From Candidatus Heimdallarchaeum aukensis (GTDB lineage: Archaea > Asgardarchaeota > Heimdallarchaeia > Heimdallarchaeales > Heimdallarchaeaceae), in assembly GCA_021513695.1 (NCBI GenBank), contig CP084166.1, positions 1,376,001 through 1,440,000 of the forward strand: 64,000 nt of DNA. The letters run 5' to 3'. Made by a program: the position numbers and the translations under genes. The notes beneath the pieces are model-generated. The model was not told where the DNA came from, ran no database searches, and worked only from the letters and a program-made list of their open reading frames with translations. Of this stretch, positions 38,560 through 63,704 are shown piece after piece (position 1 is the stretch's first letter; each line of letters opens with the position of its first letter).

Positions 38560-39579
38560 ATGAATAGGTTTGGGGTAATGAATAGTTTAGACTTTAAAGA
38601 CATTATAAATCCACTAGTCGCTGTACTTACTTACAATGCAGAAATTGGAAAATGTGAAATAAAAGTAGAGAACGTAAGAACAAACAGAGAATTGGAGGAA
38701 ATTGAGAAAAATTTTAATAGATTATCTTACGATTTTTTAGAATGGGTAAAACGATATAATGAAATTACTATCTTTAAAGGCTCTTTTAGAGCAACATACA
38801 TTAAATTTTACAACATGCTACTTCTCTTTGTTTCAAGGTTGGAAAATTCTGGATTTGAAATAAGACCTGTTATCAAAAAGTTCTTGGAAGAGTTTGCACG
38901 TAAGTTAGTCGATGATTATATCTCAAAAAACCTTTCAAGCTCAAGAATCAAATCTTTTTTAGAGATAGAAAAATTAGATAAAGAGATTCTAAAGTCTGAA
39001 ATTGTTAAGACTTTCACTAGAATGAAAATGGATCCTTCTGCTTTACTAGAAAAATTAAGTAAAGAAAAGAAGGAAGAAGGAGTTCAAGAAATTTATATAC
39101 AAGACCAGAAAAAAAGAAGAAAAGAGATTCTCTCAGAATATCAAAAAAGCGAACAATTTGAACTTGTACCAAGTGTAAACAACATACATATGACTGCAGA
39201 AATTATTGAATCTGCAAATAAAAAAGCAATAATTTCTTTATTATTTACAGTTATAAAAGGATGTAAATCACCATCTGCAGCAGCTTATATCTATCCAATG
39301 GAGGGAAGAACTATTGGAGAACTTTATGCGGGTGATTTAGAAGAACATAAAATTTTATACGTTCTTGAGGCGATTTCTGAACATCCAAAAGCAATAAATG
39401 AAATGCTTCAGTCAAAAGAAGATCTAAAAATGCTTGATGCAGGGATAGTACAAATAATTTTAGAAGATCTAACAGAAGGTAAAATCCTAATTGGAATAAC
39501 AACAAATAAGGATGATGTTTTCAATGTTGGATACAAGATTAAGATTGCTAAATTCATCATCAAGCAATTTGGATTCTAA
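38560..39579 (+). CDS. Paralogue 3: N-terminal domain of unknown function plus a conserved C-terminal Roadblock/LC7-like domain
   Basis: 339 aa. The C-terminus reads 'SAAAYIYPMEGRTIGELYAG...EHPKAINEMLQSKEDLKMLDAGIVQIILEDLTEGKILIGIT...GYKIKIA'. Confidence 0.45.
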   Translation: MNRFGVMNSLDFKDIINPLVAVLTYNAEIGKCEIKVENVRTNRELEEIEKNFNRLSYDFLEWVKRYNEITIFKGSFRATYIKFYNMLLLFVSRLENSGFEIRPVIKKFLEEFARKLVDDYISKNLSSSRIKSFLEIEKLDKEILKSEIVKTFTRMKMDPSALLEKLSKEKKEEGVQEIYIQDQKKRRKEILSEYQKSEQFELVPSVNNIHMTAEIIESANKKAIISLLFTVIKGCKSPSAAAYIYPMEGRTIGELYAGDLEEHKILYVLEAISEHPKAINEMLQSKEDLKMLDAGIVQIILEDLTEGKILIGITTNKDDVFNVGYKIKIAKFIIKQFGF

Positions 39580-40682: not shown

Positions 40683-41357
40683 ATGGAGCAAAAAACAAGC
40701 TATAACTATGATTTTTGGGGAGCTGAAGCTGAATTAACAAAAATTAAATGGTTTGGTTTAGAAGCTATAAAAAAGGTGAGAATTTCCAAGAAATATAGAA
40801 TTTCTGAAATTGATGAAATGTTAAGAAAAAAAAGAACAATCACTGAGGCAAAGCTTCTAATTACTGCAAAAAAAGCTAAAGTCCAGACCCCATTCGTATA
40901 TGATGTTGATTCTAAAAAACGAACAATAATTATGGAATTTATTGATGGAACTAAAGTCAAAGATTTTCTGAAATCAGAAGAATTTGATAGTAAAGTCAAA
41001 AGGAAATTAATGGAAGAGATAGGAAAAAAAGTAGGTTTACTTCACGCTAATCATCTGATACATGGAGATTTAACTACTAGCAACATACTTCTCAGAAATA
41101 AAAAGTTAGTATTCATTGATTTTGGTCTCGGAAAGTTCTCAAATGAAATTGAGGATAAGGCAGTTGATGTTCTACTTATGAAAAAATGTCTAACTAGTAC
41201 TCACGCAGAGGATAACAAGGAATACTTCATTTCTTTTCAAAAAGGATATGTATCTAGTTACACCAAAGGTGATGAAATATTAAAACGTGCATTAAAAGTA
41301 GAAGCAAGAGGAAGACATCTAAAAGAAGAGGATGTAATTTCAGAGTATATTTTCTAA
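40683..41357 (+). CDS. bud32: Bud32/PRPK atypical kinase (KEOPS subunit)
   Basis: 224 aa. The catalytic loop is 'LIHGDLTTSNILL' and the DFG-equivalent is 'FIDFGLG'. The N-terminus binds Kae1. The length is typical of archaeal Bud32. Confidence 0.8.
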   Translation: MEQKTSYNYDFWGAEAELTKIKWFGLEAIKKVRISKKYRISEIDEMLRKKRTITEAKLLITAKKAKVQTPFVYDVDSKKRTIIMEFIDGTKVKDFLKSEEFDSKVKRKLMEEIGKKVGLLHANHLIHGDLTTSNILLRNKKLVFIDFGLGKFSNEIEDKAVDVLLMKKCLTSTHAEDNKEYFISFQKGYVSSYTKGDEILKRALKVEARGRHLKEEDVISEYIF

Positions 41358-41362
41358 ATCTA

Positions 41363-42670
41363 CTAACCCCTTTTTCTGATAATTGACAATGAATTTATTT
41401 TTTGTATAATTTTCCATGTTTCTTCTGCATACTTCTCCTGATGTGTCCAATTACCCTCTATTACTCCTTGCTTTGATAATTTTCCTAATTCTTTTCTTAT
41501 TTTTTTGGAAGTCTTACCAACTGGAGCATTAGCTAATTTTGAACCTGGTAAAGGCATAAAAACATGTGCTCTTATTTTTGATCCAATTTTACTAAGGGAT
41601 TTTATTACTTCAATTGATTGGAATTCATCTGCTTCAGTTGCATCTGGTAAACCAAAGATGAAGTCTACAATTGGGATAAAACCAGCATCACGGATATATT
41701 TTATTGCTCTTAAGCCTTCTTCTACTGAATGCCCTCTATGGTACATTCGTAAAATTTTATCACTTCCTGATTGTAATCCAATAGCTATTTTTTTATTTGA
41801 AACTATTTTCTTCAACTTAGTCATAATGCTTTGAGTAACAGTTTCTGGTCTAACTTCTCCAGGAAAAGTTCCAAAAAAGACTCTTTTTATTCCATCAGTA
41901 TTCTTTATTTTTGTTAGTAAATCTATTATTTCCTCTTCATTTGTCTCTTTTGGTTTCTGTGATAAGTATCCAAAGGAATTTGGAGTGATAAACCTTATAT
42001 CATCTAATTTATGTTTTGCCATCCATTGAACTGTCTCCAATATAACATCTGGTGACCTGTGGCGAGTTTTCTTGTTAAATATACTTGGAACTTGACAGAA
42101 TGCACAACCAAAAGAGCAACCTCTTGTAATTTCTAGTGGGGGAAACAACTTTCTTTGTCTTGATATCATAGGGTAATCGTCTAATTTTATTTGTGGAGGA
42201 GAAGGGTTAACAATTAGCTTTTCTTTATCTTCTGCTAGATAAGCTATGCCAGGTGTTGTTTCCAACTTGTCATTATTTAACCATTTTTCCAAAAAAAGAG
42301 AGAATGATAATTCTCCTTCTCCGATAAAAGCATAATCAAATCCAAGCCTTAAAGTGCTCAAGGGATCTCCAGTAGGATGACTTCCTCCAGCAACAAATAT
42401 AATTTTATTCAGATCTTGAGTTTTTAAATTAGAATACAGATCATCCATACTAGAATATATTTTTTCTAGTTGTGCTGTTCTAAAAGAGAAAGCAAATATC
42501 ACTTTATCATATCTTTCTAAATAAGATTGAATCTTCTTGCTGTCAACATCCGATTCAAGTAAAATGTCAAACCCATCTAGTTTTTCATTTTGATCGATTG
42601 AGGCAACTAATGGGGTAATGCTATAGAAATTCTTTTTTTCAAGACTGAAAATAAGAGCTGAATTATTCAA
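41363..42670 (-). CDS. Radical SAM protein with an N-terminal Rossmann/B12-binding-like domain
   Basis: 435 aa. It has 'ITRGCSFGCAFCQV' (CxxxCxxC) and an upstream 'IIFVAGGSHPTGDP' module. The apparent TTG start overlaps the kae1 stop (TTGA). Confidence 0.68.
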   Translation of the reverse strand: MNNSALIFSLEKKNFYSITPLVASIDQNEKLDGFDILLESDVDSKKIQSYLERYDKVIFAFSFRTAQLEKIYSSMDDLYSNLKTQDLNKIIFVAGGSHPTGDPLSTLRLGFDYAFIGEGELSFSLFLEKWLNNDKLETTPGIAYLAEDKEKLIVNPSPPQIKLDDYPMISRQRKLFPPLEITRGCSFGCAFCQVPSIFNKKTRHRSPDVILETVQWMAKHKLDDIRFITPNSFGYLSQKPKETNEEEIIDLLTKIKNTDGIKRVFFGTFPGEVRPETVTQSIMTKLKKIVSNKKIAIGLQSGSDKILRMYHRGHSVEEGLRAIKYIRDAGFIPIVDFIFGLPDATEADEFQSIEVIKSLSKIGSKIRAHVFMPLPGSKLANAPVGKTSKKIRKELGKLSKQGVIEGNWTHQEKYAEETWKIIQKINSLSIIRKRG

Positions 42671-43671
42671 TTTTCATTTCTCCAGTTAACGACTACATCT
42701 TCAACCCTATAATGTTGGTCAATAATTGTTTCTTTTAGAGGAGTAGAATATCCTTGGTTGTACATTATGAGTCCTAACCATGCTATCATTAATCCATTAT
42801 CAATCGCTAAACTCGGTTCTAATCCAAAGAATCTAGCACCATGTGATTCTGCCATAACTTTAAGCATTGCTTTCAATCGATTGTTTGAAGCAACGCCACC
42901 ACATACTAATACTTCATTCTTTTTAGTATGTGCTAAAGCTCTTTCAGTAACTTCAACTAGCATTGCAAAAACCGTTTCTTGCAAACTGTAAGAGAGATCC
43001 TCAAGAGTATATTCCTTTTTTTTGAGTAGCTTAGAAATGTGTGTGAGAATTCCAGAAAAAGACACATCCATTCCTTTTATAACATAAGGGATTGGAATAT
43101 ATTTTGTTCCATTTTCTGCTAATAGCTCGATTACACGACCCATTGGAGCTTTTTTATCGCTTAAACCCGCGTTTCTTCCAAAAACATCCAAACAATTTCC
43201 AACAGGAATATCAATAGTTTCTCCAAAAACGCGATATCTGCCTTCGCTAAAAGCAATTATTTGTGTGTTACCTCCTGATACATACAACACTACAGGATCA
43301 TCCATGTTTCCAACTAGTCGTCCTATCTCCACGTGAGCTATAGGATGATTTACGCCAACTAACGGTTTTTTGTATTTTAGCGCTAGTGTCCTTGCAGCAA
43401 CTGCACCAACCCTAAGGCAGGGACCCAACCCTGGACCCTTTGTAAAAGAGATAATATCTATATTGTCCATAGTAAGTTTAGATGTTTTAAGCGCTTCACT
43501 GATTACTTCTGGAATATTTTTGGCATGGAATTCAGAAGCTTCACGAGGGTGAATACCAGAACCTAAGGGGGGTTTGTAGGTTCTTCTAACATTTGCAAGT
43601 ATATTTCCGTTATTATCTATTATTCCTACACCTAATTTGTCAGCAGAACTTTCAATGCCAAGAGATAACAT
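42667..43671 (-). CDS. kae1: Kae1 / tRNA N6-threonylcarbamoyladenosine synthase (KEOPS catalytic subunit)
   Basis: 334 aa. It has 'MLSLGIESSADKLGVGII', the metal-binding 'HPIAHVE' (HxxxH) and 'VCGGVASN'. Confidence 0.9.
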   Translation of the reverse strand: MLSLGIESSADKLGVGIIDNNGNILANVRRTYKPPLGSGIHPREASEFHAKNIPEVISEALKTSKLTMDNIDIISFTKGPGLGPCLRVGAVAARTLALKYKKPLVGVNHPIAHVEIGRLVGNMDDPVVLYVSGGNTQIIAFSEGRYRVFGETIDIPVGNCLDVFGRNAGLSDKKAPMGRVIELLAENGTKYIPIPYVIKGMDVSFSGILTHISKLLKKKEYTLEDLSYSLQETVFAMLVEVTERALAHTKKNEVLVCGGVASNNRLKAMLKVMAESHGARFFGLEPSLAIDNGLMIAWLGLIMYNQGYSTPLKETIIDQHYRVEDVVVNWRNEN

Positions 43672-44772: not shown

Positions 44773-46017
44773 TTATATTGTTGTTGGAAACTTTGCATAA
44801 GACCTAAACTCTATCCAATCTTCTAAATGTCTATTGATTATATTTTCAATTTCATCCTGGTCTAGTTTTCTTGCAACTGATTCATCTGATGTTAATAGTG
44901 CCATAATATATCTTTCATTTTTGAACTCTAAATCTCGTAATATAAAAATCTCATTTGTTTTTTCTTCGTCGTCTAAAACATATCTTCTTATTCTTAAGAA
45001 AGGTTCTCTCATATTTGCTATCGTTTCTATTGCTTCATAGTATGCATTATGAGATAATTCTTCTAGCTTTTCATTTTTTGAGTACTGGGCAAAACAGATG
45101 TTACTTCTGAAATCATATAAACCAAAAAATTCTGCATTTAAAGTTTCAGCTACTTGTTTTGATGCATTTGCGATATAATCTTGAATCAAACTTATGTTTC
45201 TAAATATGTGCGAGAATGCACCCAATATAGAAGAGCGTATATGAACACTTGTTCTAAAGATTCCTCTTGCAGGATCAAAGGTGGGGACATTAGAATGTAA
45301 ATATTGGACCATTGAGCCAAAGATGGAATTAGCTTTCTCACTTAAAACAAAATCAGGATCAGATTTATGAAAGAATATGGTCCATGGAACATCTAATTTA
45401 AGTTTTTGAGTGACATTAACAATCTGTTTTAAATATTCAAAGCTTTCTTCATATCTATCTTCAGCTTGAACATCTACTACATAGATAATTGTGTCTGTTC
45501 CAATAAAGTACTGTTCAGGATTGTTTAGATAGTCATCTCTATATATTTTCTGTCCTCCTAATTCATGTAGATGAATATCAAGACCAAAAACCTCTAATTT
45601 TCCACGTAAAAGTCCTCTTGTTGGCGTTAGTGCATTCAACTTTTGAAAAAGTAATGAAAAAGCTCCTCTATGTTTCAAGGCTATAGAAAGTGAGGTTTTT
45701 CCTACATTATCAATTCCTGCTAAAATAATTTTAGCTCCAGAGGTTATTTTTTCAGTTTTTTCTACCAATAAAAGTTTGCTTGCAGCTATCCAACTATCTA
45801 TACGCTCTTTTGGAAAAAGTTTTGACAGATCACTATAGTGCTTATTCCACTCTTTTGCTAATTTTTCAATTGTTACCAAACCAAATTTTTCTAGTGATTT
45901 CACCTCACTTTCTCTAATATCTAAGAGAGCTATTACTGGCAAATCAGCTAAATTATCTTCTTTCCTATAATCCTCTTTCAATAGCTTTTCTTTTATATCT
46001 AACACTTTTTTCACCAA
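44773..46017 (-). CDS. Ras-superfamily small GTPase (Arf/Rag-Gtr-like G domain) with N- and C-terminal extensions. The C-terminal extension is possibly a roadblock-like CRD.
   Basis: 414 aa. G1 is 'ILAGIDNVGKTSL'. The switch I Thr lies in 'LTPTRG'. G3 is 'HELGGQ' (WDxGGQ-type). G4 is 'FFHKSD' (HKxD, as in the Rag/Gtr family). About 150 aa follow the G domain. Confidence 0.62.
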   Translation of the reverse strand: MVKKVLDIKEKLLKEDYRKEDNLADLPVIALLDIRESEVKSLEKFGLVTIEKLAKEWNKHYSDLSKLFPKERIDSWIAASKLLLVEKTEKITSGAKIILAGIDNVGKTSLSIALKHRGAFSLLFQKLNALTPTRGLLRGKLEVFGLDIHLHELGGQKIYRDDYLNNPEQYFIGTDTIIYVVDVQAEDRYEESFEYLKQIVNVTQKLKLDVPWTIFFHKSDPDFVLSEKANSIFGSMVQYLHSNVPTFDPARGIFRTSVHIRSSILGAFSHIFRNISLIQDYIANASKQVAETLNAEFFGLYDFRSNICFAQYSKNEKLEELSHNAYYEAIETIANMREPFLRIRRYVLDDEEKTNEIFILRDLEFKNERYIMALLTSDESVARKLDQDEIENIINRHLEDWIEFRSYAKFPTTI

Positions 46018-46193: not shown

Positions 46194-48203
46194 ATGTTTT
46201 TTACGGATAAACAGCAACGAATGGAGAAAAGAAAATTGCGTGCACGTAGATTAAACAAAATACTGTTGATTACATTATTATTAATTACCACTTTTTCGGT
46301 AAGCGTATTAGGAAGAGCATATTTTTCTTCAGTTAGTGATTTTGGAAAGACAGACCTAAGTTATTCGAAAAATAATATCGTAGCTTTTGACACCAATGAA
46401 CCCATAATTGACGGGGATTTGGAATCTTATGAAGGAGAATGGGCTAATGCTACAGTTTATAGTAATATAATAGATGGGATAAATTATACTATTACCTTAA
46501 AAGCCAATGAGACTCATCTTTTCTTTGGTATAAGTTATGAGACTAATTTGTTTGTCTCACTCACAGAAACTAACGCAAGCATTCCTCACACTTGGTATGC
46601 AATTGTCTTTGACAGTAACTTTGACAAAGAATTTGGAACAGAACTTGTTCCTGAAGATACTATTTTGTTTAACTATCAAGAAAAAGATGCAACTGACGCT
46701 ACTTTGAATGGTACAGAAACTAATTCATTGGCTTTGGATGAAGATTTAGGAGGAGAAGATAACACAATAGGTGCTATTCAAACAGATCTTTTTGTTGAAG
46801 AATACACTGTAACAATAGAAATCGCTAAAGAATTAAACTCAGGAGATAAGGAAGGGAATGATATAGCCCTAAACCCAAGCGATGCTATTCTATTTGCTTT
46901 AATTCCATTTGCTAACCATACGGATGTATTCAATAATACCGAGGTTCCTTCATTAGAATGGAATACTTTAAGATTAGAACCCACACAAGAATTCTACACA
47001 TATATAGAAAATACCGAAGATCTGTCAGTAGTAACCTACGTTTCAGATTCAGTAAGAACAAAGAGAGTAGAGTTTAATTCAATAGGAAATATGTTAGAAG
47101 CCTATCAATTAAATTCTCAATTAGCAAATAAGGATAATTTTGAGATTACAACTGAAAATCTCAACGATGTTGATCTATTTATTATGGCAGGAAATCAAAA
47201 ATCCCTAACTTCTAGCCAAATATCTGTTTTACGTTCATATTTGACAAATGGAGGAAGTATACTCCTTATTGCAGATGAAGTGAAAAATGAAAGTTCAATT
47301 AATGAATTCTTACGAATGTTCAATATGGAACTATACAATTCAACACTCTACTCAAACAATACTGCCATCAATGAATCTCTAACTTTTGATCAAACAACAC
47401 TTGCACAACTACAATATTTACAAGAAGATAGTGCTTTTACAGAAACAGAATTCAGTAATATCTTTTACACAGGTACAGCAATAAAAAACATTTCTGCCTA
47501 TGGAGAAACCATTTTATTTGGACAAGATGCTGACTTATATCCGATCCTTTCAAAAGAAGGAGAATTCTTCATCAATTTAGGTGAAAAAACAGGATACAAT
47601 AGCACAGAAGATATTGCGATAAACAATGTGACTTTGCAAACTGCTTTAGAACTAAAATATGGAGGAAAAATGATTGTTTCTGCCTCAGCTGACATGTATA
47701 ATTCATCAAATCTTGTATTTGGTTCAAATAAGATGTTACTGTTGAAAGAGATACAATGGTTACTTAACTTCAGATTCAGAATAAGCTATGAAAACTTTAA
47801 CGTCCCTCAGACAAAAGTTAAAGAGGGAAATCCAATAGAAATGAACATTAGCGTTACAGGAGATAACGATACAGTTCTAGCAAATGTTAAAGTACAAGGA
47901 AGAGTGCTTGTTCTTAAATCAGTTGTTTCTTCTGTTGAACTTAATGCTTCAGAAAACAAAATCGATTTCTATGGACAAATTGTTCCTGAAACTAAAGCTT
48001 CATGGGTTGACATTGAGATACTGATGCACAAAAGAGGATATGGATATAACTACACTGAACTAGTAGAAGTTTTAATTGAAAAACAAATAGAAATTCCTAT
48101 AGCGGTAGATTACGTGTCTTTAATTGTTTTTATAGCTTCCATTGGATTAGCTATAATAGGAATGATAACTATAAGAAGACACAAAATTCAAAAAGAAGAA
48201 TAA
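46194..48203 (+). CDS. Surface or secreted protein with an N-terminal signal/anchor, an N-glycosylation-sequon-rich ectodomain and a C-terminal TM anchor
   Basis: 669 aa. The N-terminus is 'LLITLLLITTFSVSVLG'. More than 20 N-x-S/T sequons are present. The C-terminus is 'VSLIVFIASIGLAIIGMITIRRHK'. Confidence 0.45.
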   Translation: MFFTDKQQRMEKRKLRARRLNKILLITLLLITTFSVSVLGRAYFSSVSDFGKTDLSYSKNNIVAFDTNEPIIDGDLESYEGEWANATVYSNIIDGINYTITLKANETHLFFGISYETNLFVSLTETNASIPHTWYAIVFDSNFDKEFGTELVPEDTILFNYQEKDATDATLNGTETNSLALDEDLGGEDNTIGAIQTDLFVEEYTVTIEIAKELNSGDKEGNDIALNPSDAILFALIPFANHTDVFNNTEVPSLEWNTLRLEPTQEFYTYIENTEDLSVVTYVSDSVRTKRVEFNSIGNMLEAYQLNSQLANKDNFEITTENLNDVDLFIMAGNQKSLTSSQISVLRSYLTNGGSILLIADEVKNESSINEFLRMFNMELYNSTLYSNNTAINESLTFDQTTLAQLQYLQEDSAFTETEFSNIFYTGTAIKNISAYGETILFGQDADLYPILSKEGEFFINLGEKTGYNSTEDIAINNVTLQTALELKYGGKMIVSASADMYNSSNLVFGSNKMLLLKEIQWLLNFRFRISYENFNVPQTKVKEGNPIEMNISVTGDNDTVLANVKVQGRVLVLKSVVSSVELNASENKIDFYGQIVPETKASWVDIEILMHKRGYGYNYTELVEVLIEKQIEIPIAVDYVSLIVFIASIGLAIIGMITIRRHKIQKEE

Positions 48204-50071: not shown

Positions 50072-50148
50072 GACCCTGTAGCTCAGTAGGATAGAGCACC
50101 TGCCTCCTAAGCAGGGGGTCGACGGTTCGAATCCGCCCAGGGTCGCCA
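50072..50148 (+). tRNA. tRNA-Arg (anticodon CCT), with genomically encoded CCA
   Basis: The gene folds as a cloverleaf: 7-bp acceptor GACCCTG/CAGGGTC, D-arm GCTC..GAGC, anticodon stem CCTGC/GCAGG with loop CTCCTAA (U33, CCT, A37), T-loop TTCGAAT, discriminator G, then CCA. The GC-rich 77-nt island stands out against an AT-rich background. Confidence 0.9.
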
Positions 50149-50862: not shown

Positions 50863-51981
50863 ATGAAAATTGGATTGTGTTTTTTCCCTAAAGTCGGAGG
50901 TTCAGGAATTGCTGCAACACAGCTAGCAATTGAACTTGCAAAAAAGGGACATGAGGTAATTGTTTTTACATATGACACTCCTTTCTTACTTCGCCAATCA
51001 AGACATGAAAACATACAATTAATGCTTATAGACCTTGTTTCATATCCTCTCTTCAAAGATATAGGATACCCCTATACTATTTTAAGCGCAAGTAAGTTTG
51101 TTGAAGTCATAAGAAAGGAGAAACTCGATGTTTTAAATGTACATTATGCTATACCAGCTGGTGTTTCTGCTTATTTAGCTAAAGAAATAACAGGTATTCC
51201 AGTTGGAATCACAGCTCATGGTAGTGATATACACATTTTAGGAGTTGATCCTGCTTATAATTCTGTTATGAGTCATGTTTTTGAAAAAACTAATGGAGTA
51301 TCAACGGTTTCCGAATATATGAAAAAAGAAATACACAAACATTTTCTTAAGGATAATGATAAAATTCATGTGATTTATAACCCTATCGACACAGAGCGAT
51401 TTAAAAAACAAGAAGTAAAACAATGCGACTTTAAAAAACTGTTCAACAACTATTTCATTCATGTTTCAAATTTCCGAAAAGTCAAAAATGCTCCTTTTAT
51501 TGTTAAAGCTTTCTCAGAAGTACTTAATCACAACGATGATGTAGGATTAATTATGGTTGGAGAAGGCCCTGAAAGAAAAGATTGTGAAATTATTGCAAAA
51601 AGTCTTGGGATTGAAGATCATGTGTTATTTCAAGGAGTTAGATACAATTTAGCCCCACTTTACAGTTGTTCTTCAGCTTTAATAAGTGCAAGTGAGAATG
51701 AAAGTTTTGGTTTAACATTAGCTGAAGCAATGGCTTGCGAAACACCAGTTATTGCGTCTAGAGTGGGCGGAATACCAGAAGTTGTGGAAGATGGAGAAAC
51801 GGGCTTATTATTCGAATATGGAAATAAAGATCAATTAGTAAAACATATGCTTACATTACTAGAAGACAAAGAATTAGCAAAAAAAATGGGTGTAAAGGGA
51901 AGAAAGAGAGTATTAGAAAACTTTCGATGTGACAAAATCGCAGACCAATATATACAATGGTATGAAACCCTAATTGACTAA
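50863..51981 (+). CDS. bshA: GT4 (GT-B) glycosyltransferase most similar to BshA (N-acetyl-alpha-D-glucosaminyl L-malate synthase) / MshA-type thiol-pathway glycosyltransferases
   Basis: 372 aa. 'KIGLCFFPKVGGSGIAATQLAIELAKKGHEV', 'LDVLNVHYAIPAGVSAYLAKEITG', 'IHVSNFRKVKN' and the EX7E motif 'ESFGLTLAEAMACETPVIASRVGGIPEVVEDGETGLL' track the BshA family closely, from memory of B. subtilis BshA. Confidence 0.72.
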   Translation: MKIGLCFFPKVGGSGIAATQLAIELAKKGHEVIVFTYDTPFLLRQSRHENIQLMLIDLVSYPLFKDIGYPYTILSASKFVEVIRKEKLDVLNVHYAIPAGVSAYLAKEITGIPVGITAHGSDIHILGVDPAYNSVMSHVFEKTNGVSTVSEYMKKEIHKHFLKDNDKIHVIYNPIDTERFKKQEVKQCDFKKLFNNYFIHVSNFRKVKNAPFIVKAFSEVLNHNDDVGLIMVGEGPERKDCEIIAKSLGIEDHVLFQGVRYNLAPLYSCSSALISASENESFGLTLAEAMACETPVIASRVGGIPEVVEDGETGLLFEYGNKDQLVKHMLTLLEDKELAKKMGVKGRKRVLENFRCDKIADQYIQWYETLID

Positions 51982-52022
51982 TTTTTTCATTTTATTAGTT
52001 CTAGCTTCTTTAGGACATATTA

Positions 52023-53642
52023 CTAAACATGAGTATTTAGGAACTGGATTCCACCAACGGGCGAATATTTAGAATATTGACGTTTATAAGCTCTTAAGTA
52101 ATCTGATAAGCCAGTGATACTTGCTAGACAAAACCAAGGATAACTTACTTCTTGCCAAGTTTTTTTACTGGTATAGATTCCCCACTGCCAAGATTTTAAC
52201 AATGATACTTTTGAAGTGGGAGAATCATCTACTTGCTTTATTTTTTCTAACTTTTCAAGAATAAACGCTCTAAGACTTTTTGCATTTTCAAAAAGTTTAT
52301 CTTTTTCATTTTTCTTTTTTGCTTTAGAAATTTGCCCCAGAAGTTTAAATAATTCTGGTGTGATTAAGCTATATTCCTTCAATTCTGGAGAATTACTCAT
52401 TTCTTCTATCCAATTGGAATTGTAAACCATTCTAGTATATTTTAATAATACGGGAAATTGAACACCAAGCTTTCTAACTGCAGGAATGACTTGAGCATTA
52501 TAATTTATCTCCCCGGGCCCAGATACTCTCAGATACACGGGCATAACAGATTGAAGTGTTGCTTGATTCGTATCTAACCTTGCAGCCAAATTTCTCGCAT
52601 AAGGTTTTAAATTTATTTTCTCTTTGTCAATATCAAAACTTATTTCTTGACCGTCAATTTTACACTTGCCTGAAAAAATTAGAGAATCTTCTTCTTCTTT
52701 GCAAGACAAAACAACCCTATGTCCATTTTCACACTCATAGAAAAAGGGTGAATAATCTTTTTCTTTTTTTGGAGTAGTAGGACGTAAACCGAGAGAAAAA
52801 AGTTTGTTAGAAGCTTTATTGAATTCTTCAATATATTCATCTCTTCTTTTAAGAATAGGTTTATATCCTTTTACAAGTAGTTCTCTGATTTCAGGATGAG
52901 AAGTTGGAAATAATACAAGCCCCCAATCGTTGATGATATTTGCTTGGATTCCATAAATTAAAGCAGCCCAATCACCAAAAGAAAAAGAAGAACGATAAGT
53001 TTCTCTCATGAATGTAAGTATATGTTCTACCCTCTCAAGGAAAAGATTTTGCTTTTCTTTGGGTAAAAGAGATCGAAACTCGAGAAATATGTTCTTTATA
53101 ACCTTTAAGTTCTCATCTAACCAATCAAAATTTCTCATTGAAATTGCAAAAGAAGCAATATTTTCTTGAATGCTAATTAAAGAAATAGGTTTAGTAAAGG
53201 AAGTTTGGGCATTTGGTATGTGAATTGTTGTGATTTCAGGCTGAACCACATCATGAGTATTAACTAAAAAAACAGGTGATAATTTACGCCCATACTCTTT
53301 ACTTAATTCTGAGAGTGTAACAGTAGCCGCAATTTTATTACCAATTAGACTTACTCCCCCAAAAATCGTTGCTTGTTGACCTGCTAAAACAACGCCATTG
53401 TTAATATTATGAATATTGGATCTAACTCTATCTGTAAGTAGACCCAACTTTTCATGATATGATAATAATATTTTCTTCAAAGATTCAACAGTATTTGTTT
53501 CAATATATACTTCTGGAAGTTTACTTACTTTTTCCAGAGCTTCATGAAAAGTTTTAGGAACAAAGTTATAAAAGTACTCTAAATAAGGATGTTTTATATT
53601 TTCCCAGATGTATGAAGAGTATAAATCACCTGCTGTATTCAT
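52023..53642 (-). CDS. bshC: BshC-like protein (putative bacillithiol-pathway cysteine-adding enzyme family, PF10079-like)
   Basis: 539 aa, the same length as B. subtilis BshC. It contains 'GVVLAGQQATIFGGVSLIGNKIAA' (the GQQ motif) and 'LRVSGPGEINYNAQV' (the GPGEINY motif). It is convergent with the bshA-like gene. Confidence 0.58.
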   Translation of the reverse strand: MNTAGDLYSSYIWENIKHPYLEYFYNFVPKTFHEALEKVSKLPEVYIETNTVESLKKILLSYHEKLGLLTDRVRSNIHNINNGVVLAGQQATIFGGVSLIGNKIAATVTLSELSKEYGRKLSPVFLVNTHDVVQPEITTIHIPNAQTSFTKPISLISIQENIASFAISMRNFDWLDENLKVIKNIFLEFRSLLPKEKQNLFLERVEHILTFMRETYRSSFSFGDWAALIYGIQANIINDWGLVLFPTSHPEIRELLVKGYKPILKRRDEYIEEFNKASNKLFSLGLRPTTPKKEKDYSPFFYECENGHRVVLSCKEEEDSLIFSGKCKIDGQEISFDIDKEKINLKPYARNLAARLDTNQATLQSVMPVYLRVSGPGEINYNAQVIPAVRKLGVQFPVLLKYTRMVYNSNWIEEMSNSPELKEYSLITPELFKLLGQISKAKKKNEKDKLFENAKSLRAFILEKLEKIKQVDDSPTSKVSLLKSWQWGIYTSKKTWQEVSYPWFCLASITGLSDYLRAYKRQYSKYSPVGGIQFLNTHV

Positions 53643-53917: not shown

Positions 53918-54118
53918 ATGTCTCAAGAAGAAAATCGAAGTTTTCTTAAAGGTGAGAAAATGGCAAGAGTAGAATGTCCTAAATGTAAGAGTTTAAACGT
54001 AAAAGAGGTAGAAGACAAGAGCAAAGTGATTGCATACTTTAATCACGTACCAGTCTATAAGAAAAAGCTTGTGTGTAAAGACTGTACATACGAATGGTAT
54101 CCTGATGAGAAAGAATAG
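53918..54118 (+). CDS. Small zinc-ribbon protein
   Basis: 66 aa with 'CPKCKSLNV ... CKDCTYEW' (CxxC..CxxC). Confidence 0.35.
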   Translation: MSQEENRSFLKGEKMARVECPKCKSLNVKEVEDKSKVIAYFNHVPVYKKKLVCKDCTYEWYPDEKE

Positions 54119-63005: not shown

Positions 63006-63704
63006 GGGTGTGCGGGAATACCCCTGATTCTGTTCGGAAGTCATTTACATGAAACTTCTTAGCAACATTCATCTATGCGCTTTACCCGACTTAGAAAGTC
63101 CTATTTAAGCTTGCACCACGATGTATGATCGTTTCATCGCTCCCTCTTTACTCCTCAATAACTTCATAGGACACCCTATGTGTCATATCATTGTCAACGT
63201 AAAGAGGACGTGTCGTTTCTATTTCAGGGACCACGTTCTCACGTGATGGGTTTGCACCCATATCGCTTGTTAGGTGTCAGGAGGTTCCTCAGGTTTAACC
63301 CGAAAGTTGCTCTCCCGCTCACCCTAAGAGTACTATGTTTTTATCAAAAATAAAGATAGCTGTCACAGATTGCTGACATTCTCTCACGCTAAAGCGTGGG
63401 AGGTTCTTGATTCTACAGAGAGAAGCAAAGGGCGTGCCACCGCCCCGTTAATGACTCCCGCAGGGAAACGTTCACCCTGAGCGAGACCTATATTTAAACA
63501 ACCTACAGCGTCTCTATGGGGCTCTAAGCCACAATCAAGACATTTGAATAATCTTTTTCTTTTGAATACGTGCGTAGAACGACAACGGGGGCAAATAGAG
63601 GAACTGTGTGCTTCTATAACTTCTTTTACGCTTATACCGTATTCTTCTGCCTTTGCTTTGATTCTCGTAACGAGATAATTATGACTCCAAAAATTGTGTA
63701 CCAT
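63006..63704 (-). mobile_element. Remnant of an IS200/IS605-family element: tnpB 3' fragment plus a GC-rich downstream (right-end / possible omega-RNA) region
   Basis: An abrupt GC-rich block of about 700 bp (about 50% GC by eye) lies in about 30% GC surroundings. Hairpins occur at the tnpB stop, e.g. ctctcacgc-taaa-gcgtgggag at 63381..63402 and tgtca-cagattgc-tgaca at 63361..63378. Confidence 0.4.
63384..63704 (-). pseudogene. tnpB: Truncated TnpB (IS200/IS605 OrfB) gene: only the C-terminal RuvC-III / zinc-ribbon part is present
   Basis: 106-aa ORF. 'RIKAKAEEYGISVKEVIEAHSSSICPRCRSTHVFKRKRLFKCLDCGLEPHRDAVGCLNIGL' fits the TnpB C-terminal pattern (..TSqtC..CG...R.f.C..CG...dRD.NAa.NI). Stops occur within 8 codons upstream of the Met, and the AT-rich 5' flank does not code. 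Confidence 0.6.

Follow-up and report, generated by a model that had tools for sequence, protein, structure and literature searches.

A convergent bshA and bshC-like gene pair and a probable bacillithiol-type thiol pathway in a Heimdallarchaeaceae archaeon

The gene pair, its host and BshA

A stretch of 64,000 nucleotides from the archaeon Candidatus Heimdallarchaeum aukensis (contig CP084166.1, positions 1,376,001 to 1,440,000), hereafter the window, carries two tail-to-tail genes whose products are probably the first and the last enzyme in a low-molecular-weight thiol pathway of the bacillithiol (BSH) type. The first, bshA (50863..51981, + strand), encodes a retaining GT4 glycosyltransferase of 372 amino acids (aa), predicted to be a UDP-GlcNAc (UDP-N-acetylglucosamine):L-malate N-acetylglucosaminyltransferase. 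The second, a bshC-like gene (52023..53642, - strand), encodes a Rossmann protein of 539 aa related to the class I aminoacyl-tRNA synthetases (aaRS); it belongs to an archaeal BshC clade and is a predicted cysteine-adding enzyme. The convergent intergenic spacer (51982..52022), read directly from the sequence, is 41 bp long and T-rich on the + strand directly 3' of the bshA stop codon. Upstream of bshC by 275 bp and divergent from it lies a small zinc-ribbon open reading frame (ORF; 53918..54118, + strand) of 66 aa, with a core of ~50 aa and a CPxC...CxxC pattern, which is a possible accessory gene.

The host is archaeal, since the window encodes an archaeal RNase P RNA (63008-63322, - strand, 178 bits), a Tsr3 gene lies upstream of bshA, and the closest homologues of both BshA and the BshC-like protein are labelled Candidatus Heimdallarchaeaceae or Ca. 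Heimdallarchaeum endolithica. The same pair is found in the closed genome CP084167.1 (Ca. Heimdallarchaeum endolithica PR6), with 86% identity for BshC and 90% for BshA. The flanking genes are housekeeping genes, and a tRNA-Arg(CCT) gene (50072-50148, + strand) is located just upstream of tsr3 and bshA. The GC content around the pair (0.31-0.32) falls in the range of the window (0.27-0.34), so its base composition is indistinguishable from that of the host. The pair had first been described from the letters alone, in what we call the sequence-only reading. That observation was confirmed in every detail: the two convergent ORFs, the GQQ and GPGEINY motifs of the 539-aa protein (residues 88-90 and 375-381), the host-like composition and the lack of a BshB in the window.

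The resemblance of the GT4 enzyme to BshA was borne out by profile searches. TIGR03999 is an equivalog model designed to tell malate-using BshA apart from the other enzymes of the GT4 family. The 372-aa protein scored 345.9 bits against it (cutoff 273.7, E = 2.5e-103), and the alignment is full length, with residues 1-371 on profile positions 1-374 of 375. The runner-up family reached 152.8 bits and MshA 96.9 bits, so that the best model leads any other GT4 model by 190 bits. Among structures, B. anthracis BshA (2JJM/3MBO) scored 274 bits, B. subtilis BshA (5D00) 244 bits and the S. aureus-type enzymes (6N1X/6D9T) 219 bits; identity with B. anthracis BshA (375 aa) is 41%. The protein carries the Pfam domains Glyco_transf_4 and Glycos_transf_1, in line with a GT-B/GT4 architecture, and its alignment shows the conserved blocks VGGSG, HG(T/S)DI, SNFRKVK, ESFGL..EAMAC and GGIPEV. 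Heimdallarchaeaceae orthologues are 58-90% identical and carry the name BshA at NCBI and JGI. By the curated equivalog test the predicted 372-aa GT4 enzyme is BshA.

The BshC-like protein and its archaeal clade

The 539-aa protein matches BshC models alone. On PF10079 (Rossmann-like_BshC) it scored 87.5 bits (gathering cutoff 27, E = 1.6e-24), with residues 19-400 aligned to profile positions 23-377 of 380. Its fold comprises a class-I-aaRS-like Rossmann core and a helical C-terminal domain, and resembles BshC more closely than it does MshC or any tRNA synthetase. The GQQ and GPGEINY motifs align to the equivalent motifs of the B. subtilis BshC structure 4WBD and do not vary among 38 members of the family. 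An alignment of 38 homologues at 48-86% identity retains ~80 invariant columns, which indicates strong purifying selection. Sequence and fold both place the protein in the BshC/PF10079 family. Its designation as BshC in the sequence-only reading thus stands as regards family, fold and motifs, but not at the level of the equivalog: on TIGR03998 it reached 91.6 bits against a cutoff of 265.8 (E = 5.2e-26, profile positions 40-442 of 529).

An exhaustive search with a profile of the Heimdall BshC-like proteins recovered 831 relatives. Those at 180-515 bits belong, where named, to Heimdallarchaeota, Kariarchaeaceae, Hodarchaeales, Thorarchaeota, Promethearchaeota and Ca. Harpocratesius, and the Bathyarchaeia proteins group with those of the Asgard archaea. 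Representatives at ~70 bits on the same profile scored 464-575 bits on TIGR03998 and are therefore canonical bacterial BshC, while the tested archaeal relatives obtained 30-85 bits, all far under the cutoff. When 111 full-length proteins were placed in a neighbour-joining tree, the archaeal sequences fell into a single clade, set apart from and distant to the bacterial representatives, and the Heimdall BshC families are monophyletic inside it. An intermediate PF10079 group (P0101, P0117, P0136, P0138, P0139, P0166, P0171, P0172 and P0175) lies between the two clades. One of its members, P0166, comes from an Altiarchaeota metagenome-assembled genome (MAG), where it is annotated as a 'hypothetical protein', and P0101, the sole member scanned, had no NCBIfam match at E <= 0.001. 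A BshC-like gene of the Kariarchaeaceae type, whose product shares 34% identity with the window protein, was also seen at L034:1768-3414 (+). It adjoins glycine-cleavage genes (GcvH and GcvP subunits), and bshA is not on this 7.9-kb contig.

The tree bears on the origin of the genes. The sequence-only reading took them for a horizontally acquired module of some age. The BshC phylogeny and the host-like composition rule out that Firmicutes or Deinococcus donated them recently, so the acquisition, if there was one, was not recent; transfer itself is not shown, the genes being widespread in Asgard archaea and Bathyarchaeia with a deep BshC clade of their own. They represent an old archaeal bsh-cluster lineage whose hallmark is the convergent bshC/bshA pair. 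An ancient inter-domain transfer, in either direction and of uncertain date, is possible.

Comparison of 36 archaeal and 66 bacterial sequences identified 14 positions that are at least 85% conserved, with the identical residue, in both clades: Q90, G96, K103, P123, D131, E136, F300, R309, G375, E378, Y381, P397, Q497 and E498. Two other positions are conserved within each clade but differ between them, namely 355 (R in archaea, N in bacteria) and 402 (Y in archaea, R in bacteria), and both are near-invariant in bacteria. We read this as one catalytic core that archaeal and bacterial BshC would share, with clade-specific changes at the periphery.

These changes, the shortfall on TIGR03998 and the low sequence score against 4WBD (just 45.5 bits) all count against a bacillithiol-type product. 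The changes and the shortfall would fit a diverged specificity of archaeal BshC, with the pair making a related but different compound, for example a glucosamine (GlcN) conjugate in which the aglycone or the amino acid is another one, or a metabolite that is no thiol, and with the Heimdallarchaeaceae version doing without a canonical BshB. That BshA passes a model which sets malate-using enzymes apart, and that the catalytic-core residues of BshC are retained, speaks for the bacillithiol-type reading instead, and we consider a different product possible but distinctly the less probable outcome. Because the equivalog cutoff is missed and the archaeal clade is well separated from bacterial BshC, that the two enzymes make the same product is something we infer.

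Conserved linkage and the deacetylase gene

A genome scan returned 29 loci, every one from Heimdallarchaeota MAGs. Overall 118 loci were fetched, of which 45 hold both bshC and bshA (32 from Heimdallarchaeaceae and 13 from other archaea). These span Heimdallarchaeaceae, Kariarchaeum-type archaea, Hodarchaeota, Promethearchaeota and Bathyarchaeia, and in all 45 the two genes are convergent neighbours. The convergent order survives at L003 and L004, where the flanking genes are rearranged. Among the 32 Heimdallarchaeaceae loci, 30 have a spacer of 7-50 bp and the remaining two one of 453 bp. Moreover, in ~30 species-level Heimdallarchaeaceae genomes the two genes are undamaged and under strong conservation, with invariant catalytic motifs. 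Because the genes are convergent neighbours throughout, functional coupling of bshC and bshA is supported. Co-occurrence or co-localisation with bshA was the criterion used in the original discovery of BshC, and the archaeal bshC has bshA as its neighbour at each of these loci.

The same data bear on the idea that the adjacency is coincidental, a generic archaeal envelope or glycolipid GT4 enzyme happening to lie beside an unrelated aaRS-like enzyme, or that the pair came recently from Firmicutes. GT4 enzymes are numerous and loosely annotated, and the genes beside the pair are housekeeping genes. Nevertheless, the lead of BshA over every other GT4 model, an adjacency kept across several archaeal phyla and through rearrangements, a monophyletic archaeal BshC clade distant from all bacterial representatives and a GC content equal to that of the host leave this explanation very improbable; synteny and phylogeny already contradict it.

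Two neighbouring genes were noted in single loci. In one Heimdallarchaeaceae MAG a 120-aa gene of the glyoxalase/bleomycin-resistance fold (L005:9557-9919, -) lies immediately upstream of bshC; the bacillithiol transferase FosB has the same fold, and the proximity may be a coincidence. In a Promethearchaeota locus a nitroreductase-family gene (L036:11163-11666, -) is inserted between bshA and bshC.

The position of the deacetylase gene separates the Heimdallarchaeaceae from the other archaea. A bshB-like LmbE/PIG-L gene is found within 3 kb in 13 of 13 loci outside the family, but in none of the 32 within it. In Hodarchaeota (L035:9215-9886) and Promethearchaeota (L036:9132-9809) the PIG-L gene adjoins bshA divergently, whereas in Bathyarchaeia (L037:15459-16184) it is arranged head to tail with bshC, in an operon-like manner, 2.6 kb from bshA. 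The bshB-bshA-bshC trio also occurs on a Kariarchaeum-type contig of 30% GC (L067:5977-6648) and on at least nine further metagenome contigs, among loci L039-L066. All these PIG-L proteins have an AH(A/P)DDE zinc motif; the second motif is of the HPDH type, or HHEH in L067. Their best NCBIfam match is BshB1, at 58-98 bits, under the cutoff of 182.5. Sister archaeal lineages hold the full three-gene set (bshA, bshB and bshC), a point in favour of the bacillithiol-type reading. The archaeal clusters (L035, L036, L037, L067 and L039-L066) share with the window the archaeal BshC clade, the convergent order and a BshA above the TIGR03999 cutoff (316-383 bits).

Several other genes lie near the clusters of these sister lineages. 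The Bathyarchaeia contig has two DinB_2/MST-like genes of the thiol S-transferase type (L037:3449-4036 and L037:9485-9943), one of them directly upstream of bshA, and an inositol-1-phosphate synthase gene (L037:1898-2860); the DinB/MST-like genes, too, speak for a bacillithiol-type pathway. In Hodarchaeota a TrxR-like flavoprotein gene (L035:4859-5830, +) is located 4 kb from the cluster; it scored 127 bits on the TrxR model, below the cutoff, and was considered as a YpdA/Bdr candidate, the YpdA model being absent among the 25 families shown for it.

In the Heimdallarchaeaceae the deacetylase searches, which covered less than whole genomes, located no bshB, and this counts against the bacillithiol-type reading. 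The LmbE-type motif [ASGV]H[PA]DD, validated on genuine archaeal BshB-like proteins, occurs in none of the six frames of the window and in none of 34 related loci, and no bshB was seen within +/-10 kb in the 32 Heimdallarchaeaceae loci. None of the best 120 of 6026 matches to an archaeal BshB alignment (all >=295 bits) is named Heimdallarchaeaceae; this search is uninformative for the family, because the Kariarchaeum-type BshB scores just 188 bits on a similar profile and an orthologue from Heimdallarchaeaceae would have ranked beneath the matches listed. A metagenome scan gave many full clusters but no Heimdallarchaeaceae bshB among the matches listed, and its low-GC generic PIG-L matches were not assignable to the family. 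Brx, YpdA/Bdr, DinB and FosB were likewise absent from the scanned part of the window (~32-64 kb and selected ORFs of the first ~13 kb). The publication that describes the closed Heimdallarchaeum genomes makes no mention, in its text or supplements, of bacillithiol, LmbE or PIG-L. As the searches did not see whole genomes, we hold the presence of bshB in Heimdallarchaeaceae to be unresolved rather than refuted.

Two explanations draw on this contrast. One is that Heimdallarchaeaceae have an incomplete or vestigial pathway, bshB having been lost and bshA and bshC being relics or co-opted. The lack of a nearby bshB in all 32 loci of the family, against its presence in all 13 other archaeal loci, and the failure to recover a Heimdallarchaeaceae BshB in searches that covered less than whole genomes, agree with this. 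Two genes kept intact under strong conservation in so many genomes do not, and since bacterial bshC is commonly unlinked from bshA and bshB, absence of linkage is weak evidence; we think a vestigial pathway unlikely. The other is the different product discussed above, to which the unlinked or undetected bshB, the conserved zinc-ribbon gene linked in its place and the sub-cutoff scores of the archaeal BshB-like proteins lend some weight, and from which the full three-gene set of the sister lineages detracts.

The zinc-ribbon ORF was found by tblastn in 29 Heimdallarchaeaceae loci at 57-98% identity. It is more conserved than BshC (48-55% outside the genus) or BshA (58-64% outside the genus), and in the rearranged loci L003 and L004 it lies between bshC and bshA. 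It matched no Pfam, NCBIfam or PDB family and is not in the bsh clusters of other archaeal lineages. Any role in the pathway is speculation. One conjecture, to which we give little credence, is that in an ancient archaeal bacillithiol-type lineage the LmbE gene of Heimdallarchaeaceae left the cluster, and that the zinc-ribbon protein, tied genetically to bshC and bshA, could act in cysteine addition as the partner or cofactor carrier that is missing there, or could mark a modified pathway leading to a new archaeal thiol.

The predicted pathway and other features of the window

We favour, with a probability of about 0.6, the interpretation that the two genes supply the opening and closing enzymes of a bacillithiol-type pathway, its product being Cys-GlcN-malate or a very close analogue. 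In the first step BshA would transfer N-acetylglucosamine (GlcNAc) from UDP-GlcNAc to L-malate to give GlcNAc-malate, as equivalog-level homology to the characterised bacterial BshA suggests. In the second, a zinc deacetylase of the LmbE/PIG-L type, encoded elsewhere or replaced, would give GlcN-malate; its gene was not located in this organism. In the third, the BshC-like protein would add cysteine to GlcN-malate and yield the thiol, a role that the shared fold and conserved core residues point to. The first and third steps are proposed because of homology, fold and conserved linkage. The pathway put forward in the sequence-only reading is thus upheld in part, by the BshA equivalog, BshC family membership and the linkage, and falls short where BshC stays below its cutoff and bshB was not located.

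This prediction is already known. A review by Rawat and Maupin-Furlow (2020, PMC7278568) proposed independently that archaea may make BSH, on a count of 39 archaeal InterPro matches each for BshA and BshC, mostly Asgard, and NCBI and JGI annotation already names these proteins BshA and BshC. The literature also contains evidence that weighs on the other side. As the 2020 review noted, detection of bacillithiol in an archaeon has never been achieved (PMC7278568), and even for the bacterial enzyme the BshC reaction still awaits reconstitution; our literature search found nothing newer on reconstitution, and no later paper that carries the archaeal question beyond the 2020 prediction. Most MAGs are excluded from RefSeq. 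To this, and to the divergence of archaeal BshC and BshB, we attribute the outcome of a 2025 BLAST survey of RefSeq in which no archaeon had the full bacillithiol pathway (PMC12719100). The additions made here are the distinct archaeal BshC clade, the universal convergent order, the linkage of bshB except in Heimdallarchaeaceae and the linked zinc-ribbon gene.

Compared with the bacterial bacillithiol system (BshA, BshB1/B2 and BshC) of B. subtilis and B. anthracis, and of Staphylococcus aureus, the archaeal BshC-like and BshB-like proteins lie far under the equivalog cutoffs and form a separate clade; no bshB was seen in the window, nor brx or ypdA in its scanned part, and the product is one never detected in archaea. 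Gene order differs as well: in Bacillus, bshB1 and mgsA share a transcript with bshA, and bshC is found at another site together with panE, whereas in the archaea studied here bshC and bshA are convergent neighbours. The mycothiol system of Actinobacteria (MshA, MshB and MshC) follows the same logic, with a GT4 enzyme, an LmbE deacetylase and a cysteine-adding Rossmann enzyme related to class I aaRS. Among the archaeal clusters themselves, those of the sister lineages have bshB close by, and in L037 also the DinB/MST-like genes, while in Heimdallarchaeaceae the zinc-ribbon gene stands beside bshC instead.

Of all known archaea, Heimdallarchaeia are most closely related to eukaryotes, and how they relate to oxygen is debated. 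To our knowledge, no low-molecular-weight thiol of the bacillithiol kind has been measured in any Asgard archaeon. A dedicated thiol buffer of this sort would bear on the redox physiology of the group. The archaeal clade also offers a natural experiment on the long-standing question of which cysteine donor and which reaction BshC uses: the small core shared by the two clades points to catalytically essential residues.

The remainder of the window contains other features. Eight ORFs of 195-371 aa lie at 32462-39579; one encodes a JAB/MPN-domain protein (33399-34250), and the seven others (277, 345, 371, 358, 195 and 339 aa among them) had no Pfam match at E <= 1e-4. Next come genes for a Bud32/RIO-like small kinase (40683-41357, + strand), a B12-binding radical SAM enzyme (41363-42670, - strand) and Kae1/TsaD (42667-43671, - strand). 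The KEOPS components Kae1 and Bud32 are thus encoded close together, with the radical SAM gene between them. Finally, a Gtr1/RagA-Arf family GTPase of 414 aa (44773-46017, - strand) and an IFT52 GIFT-like domain protein of 669 aa (46194-48203, + strand), the latter with a C-terminal stretch that appears hydrophobic by eye, are encoded by divergent genes. Both are of eukaryote-signature type, and the two genes are syntenic across Heimdallarchaeaceae loci.

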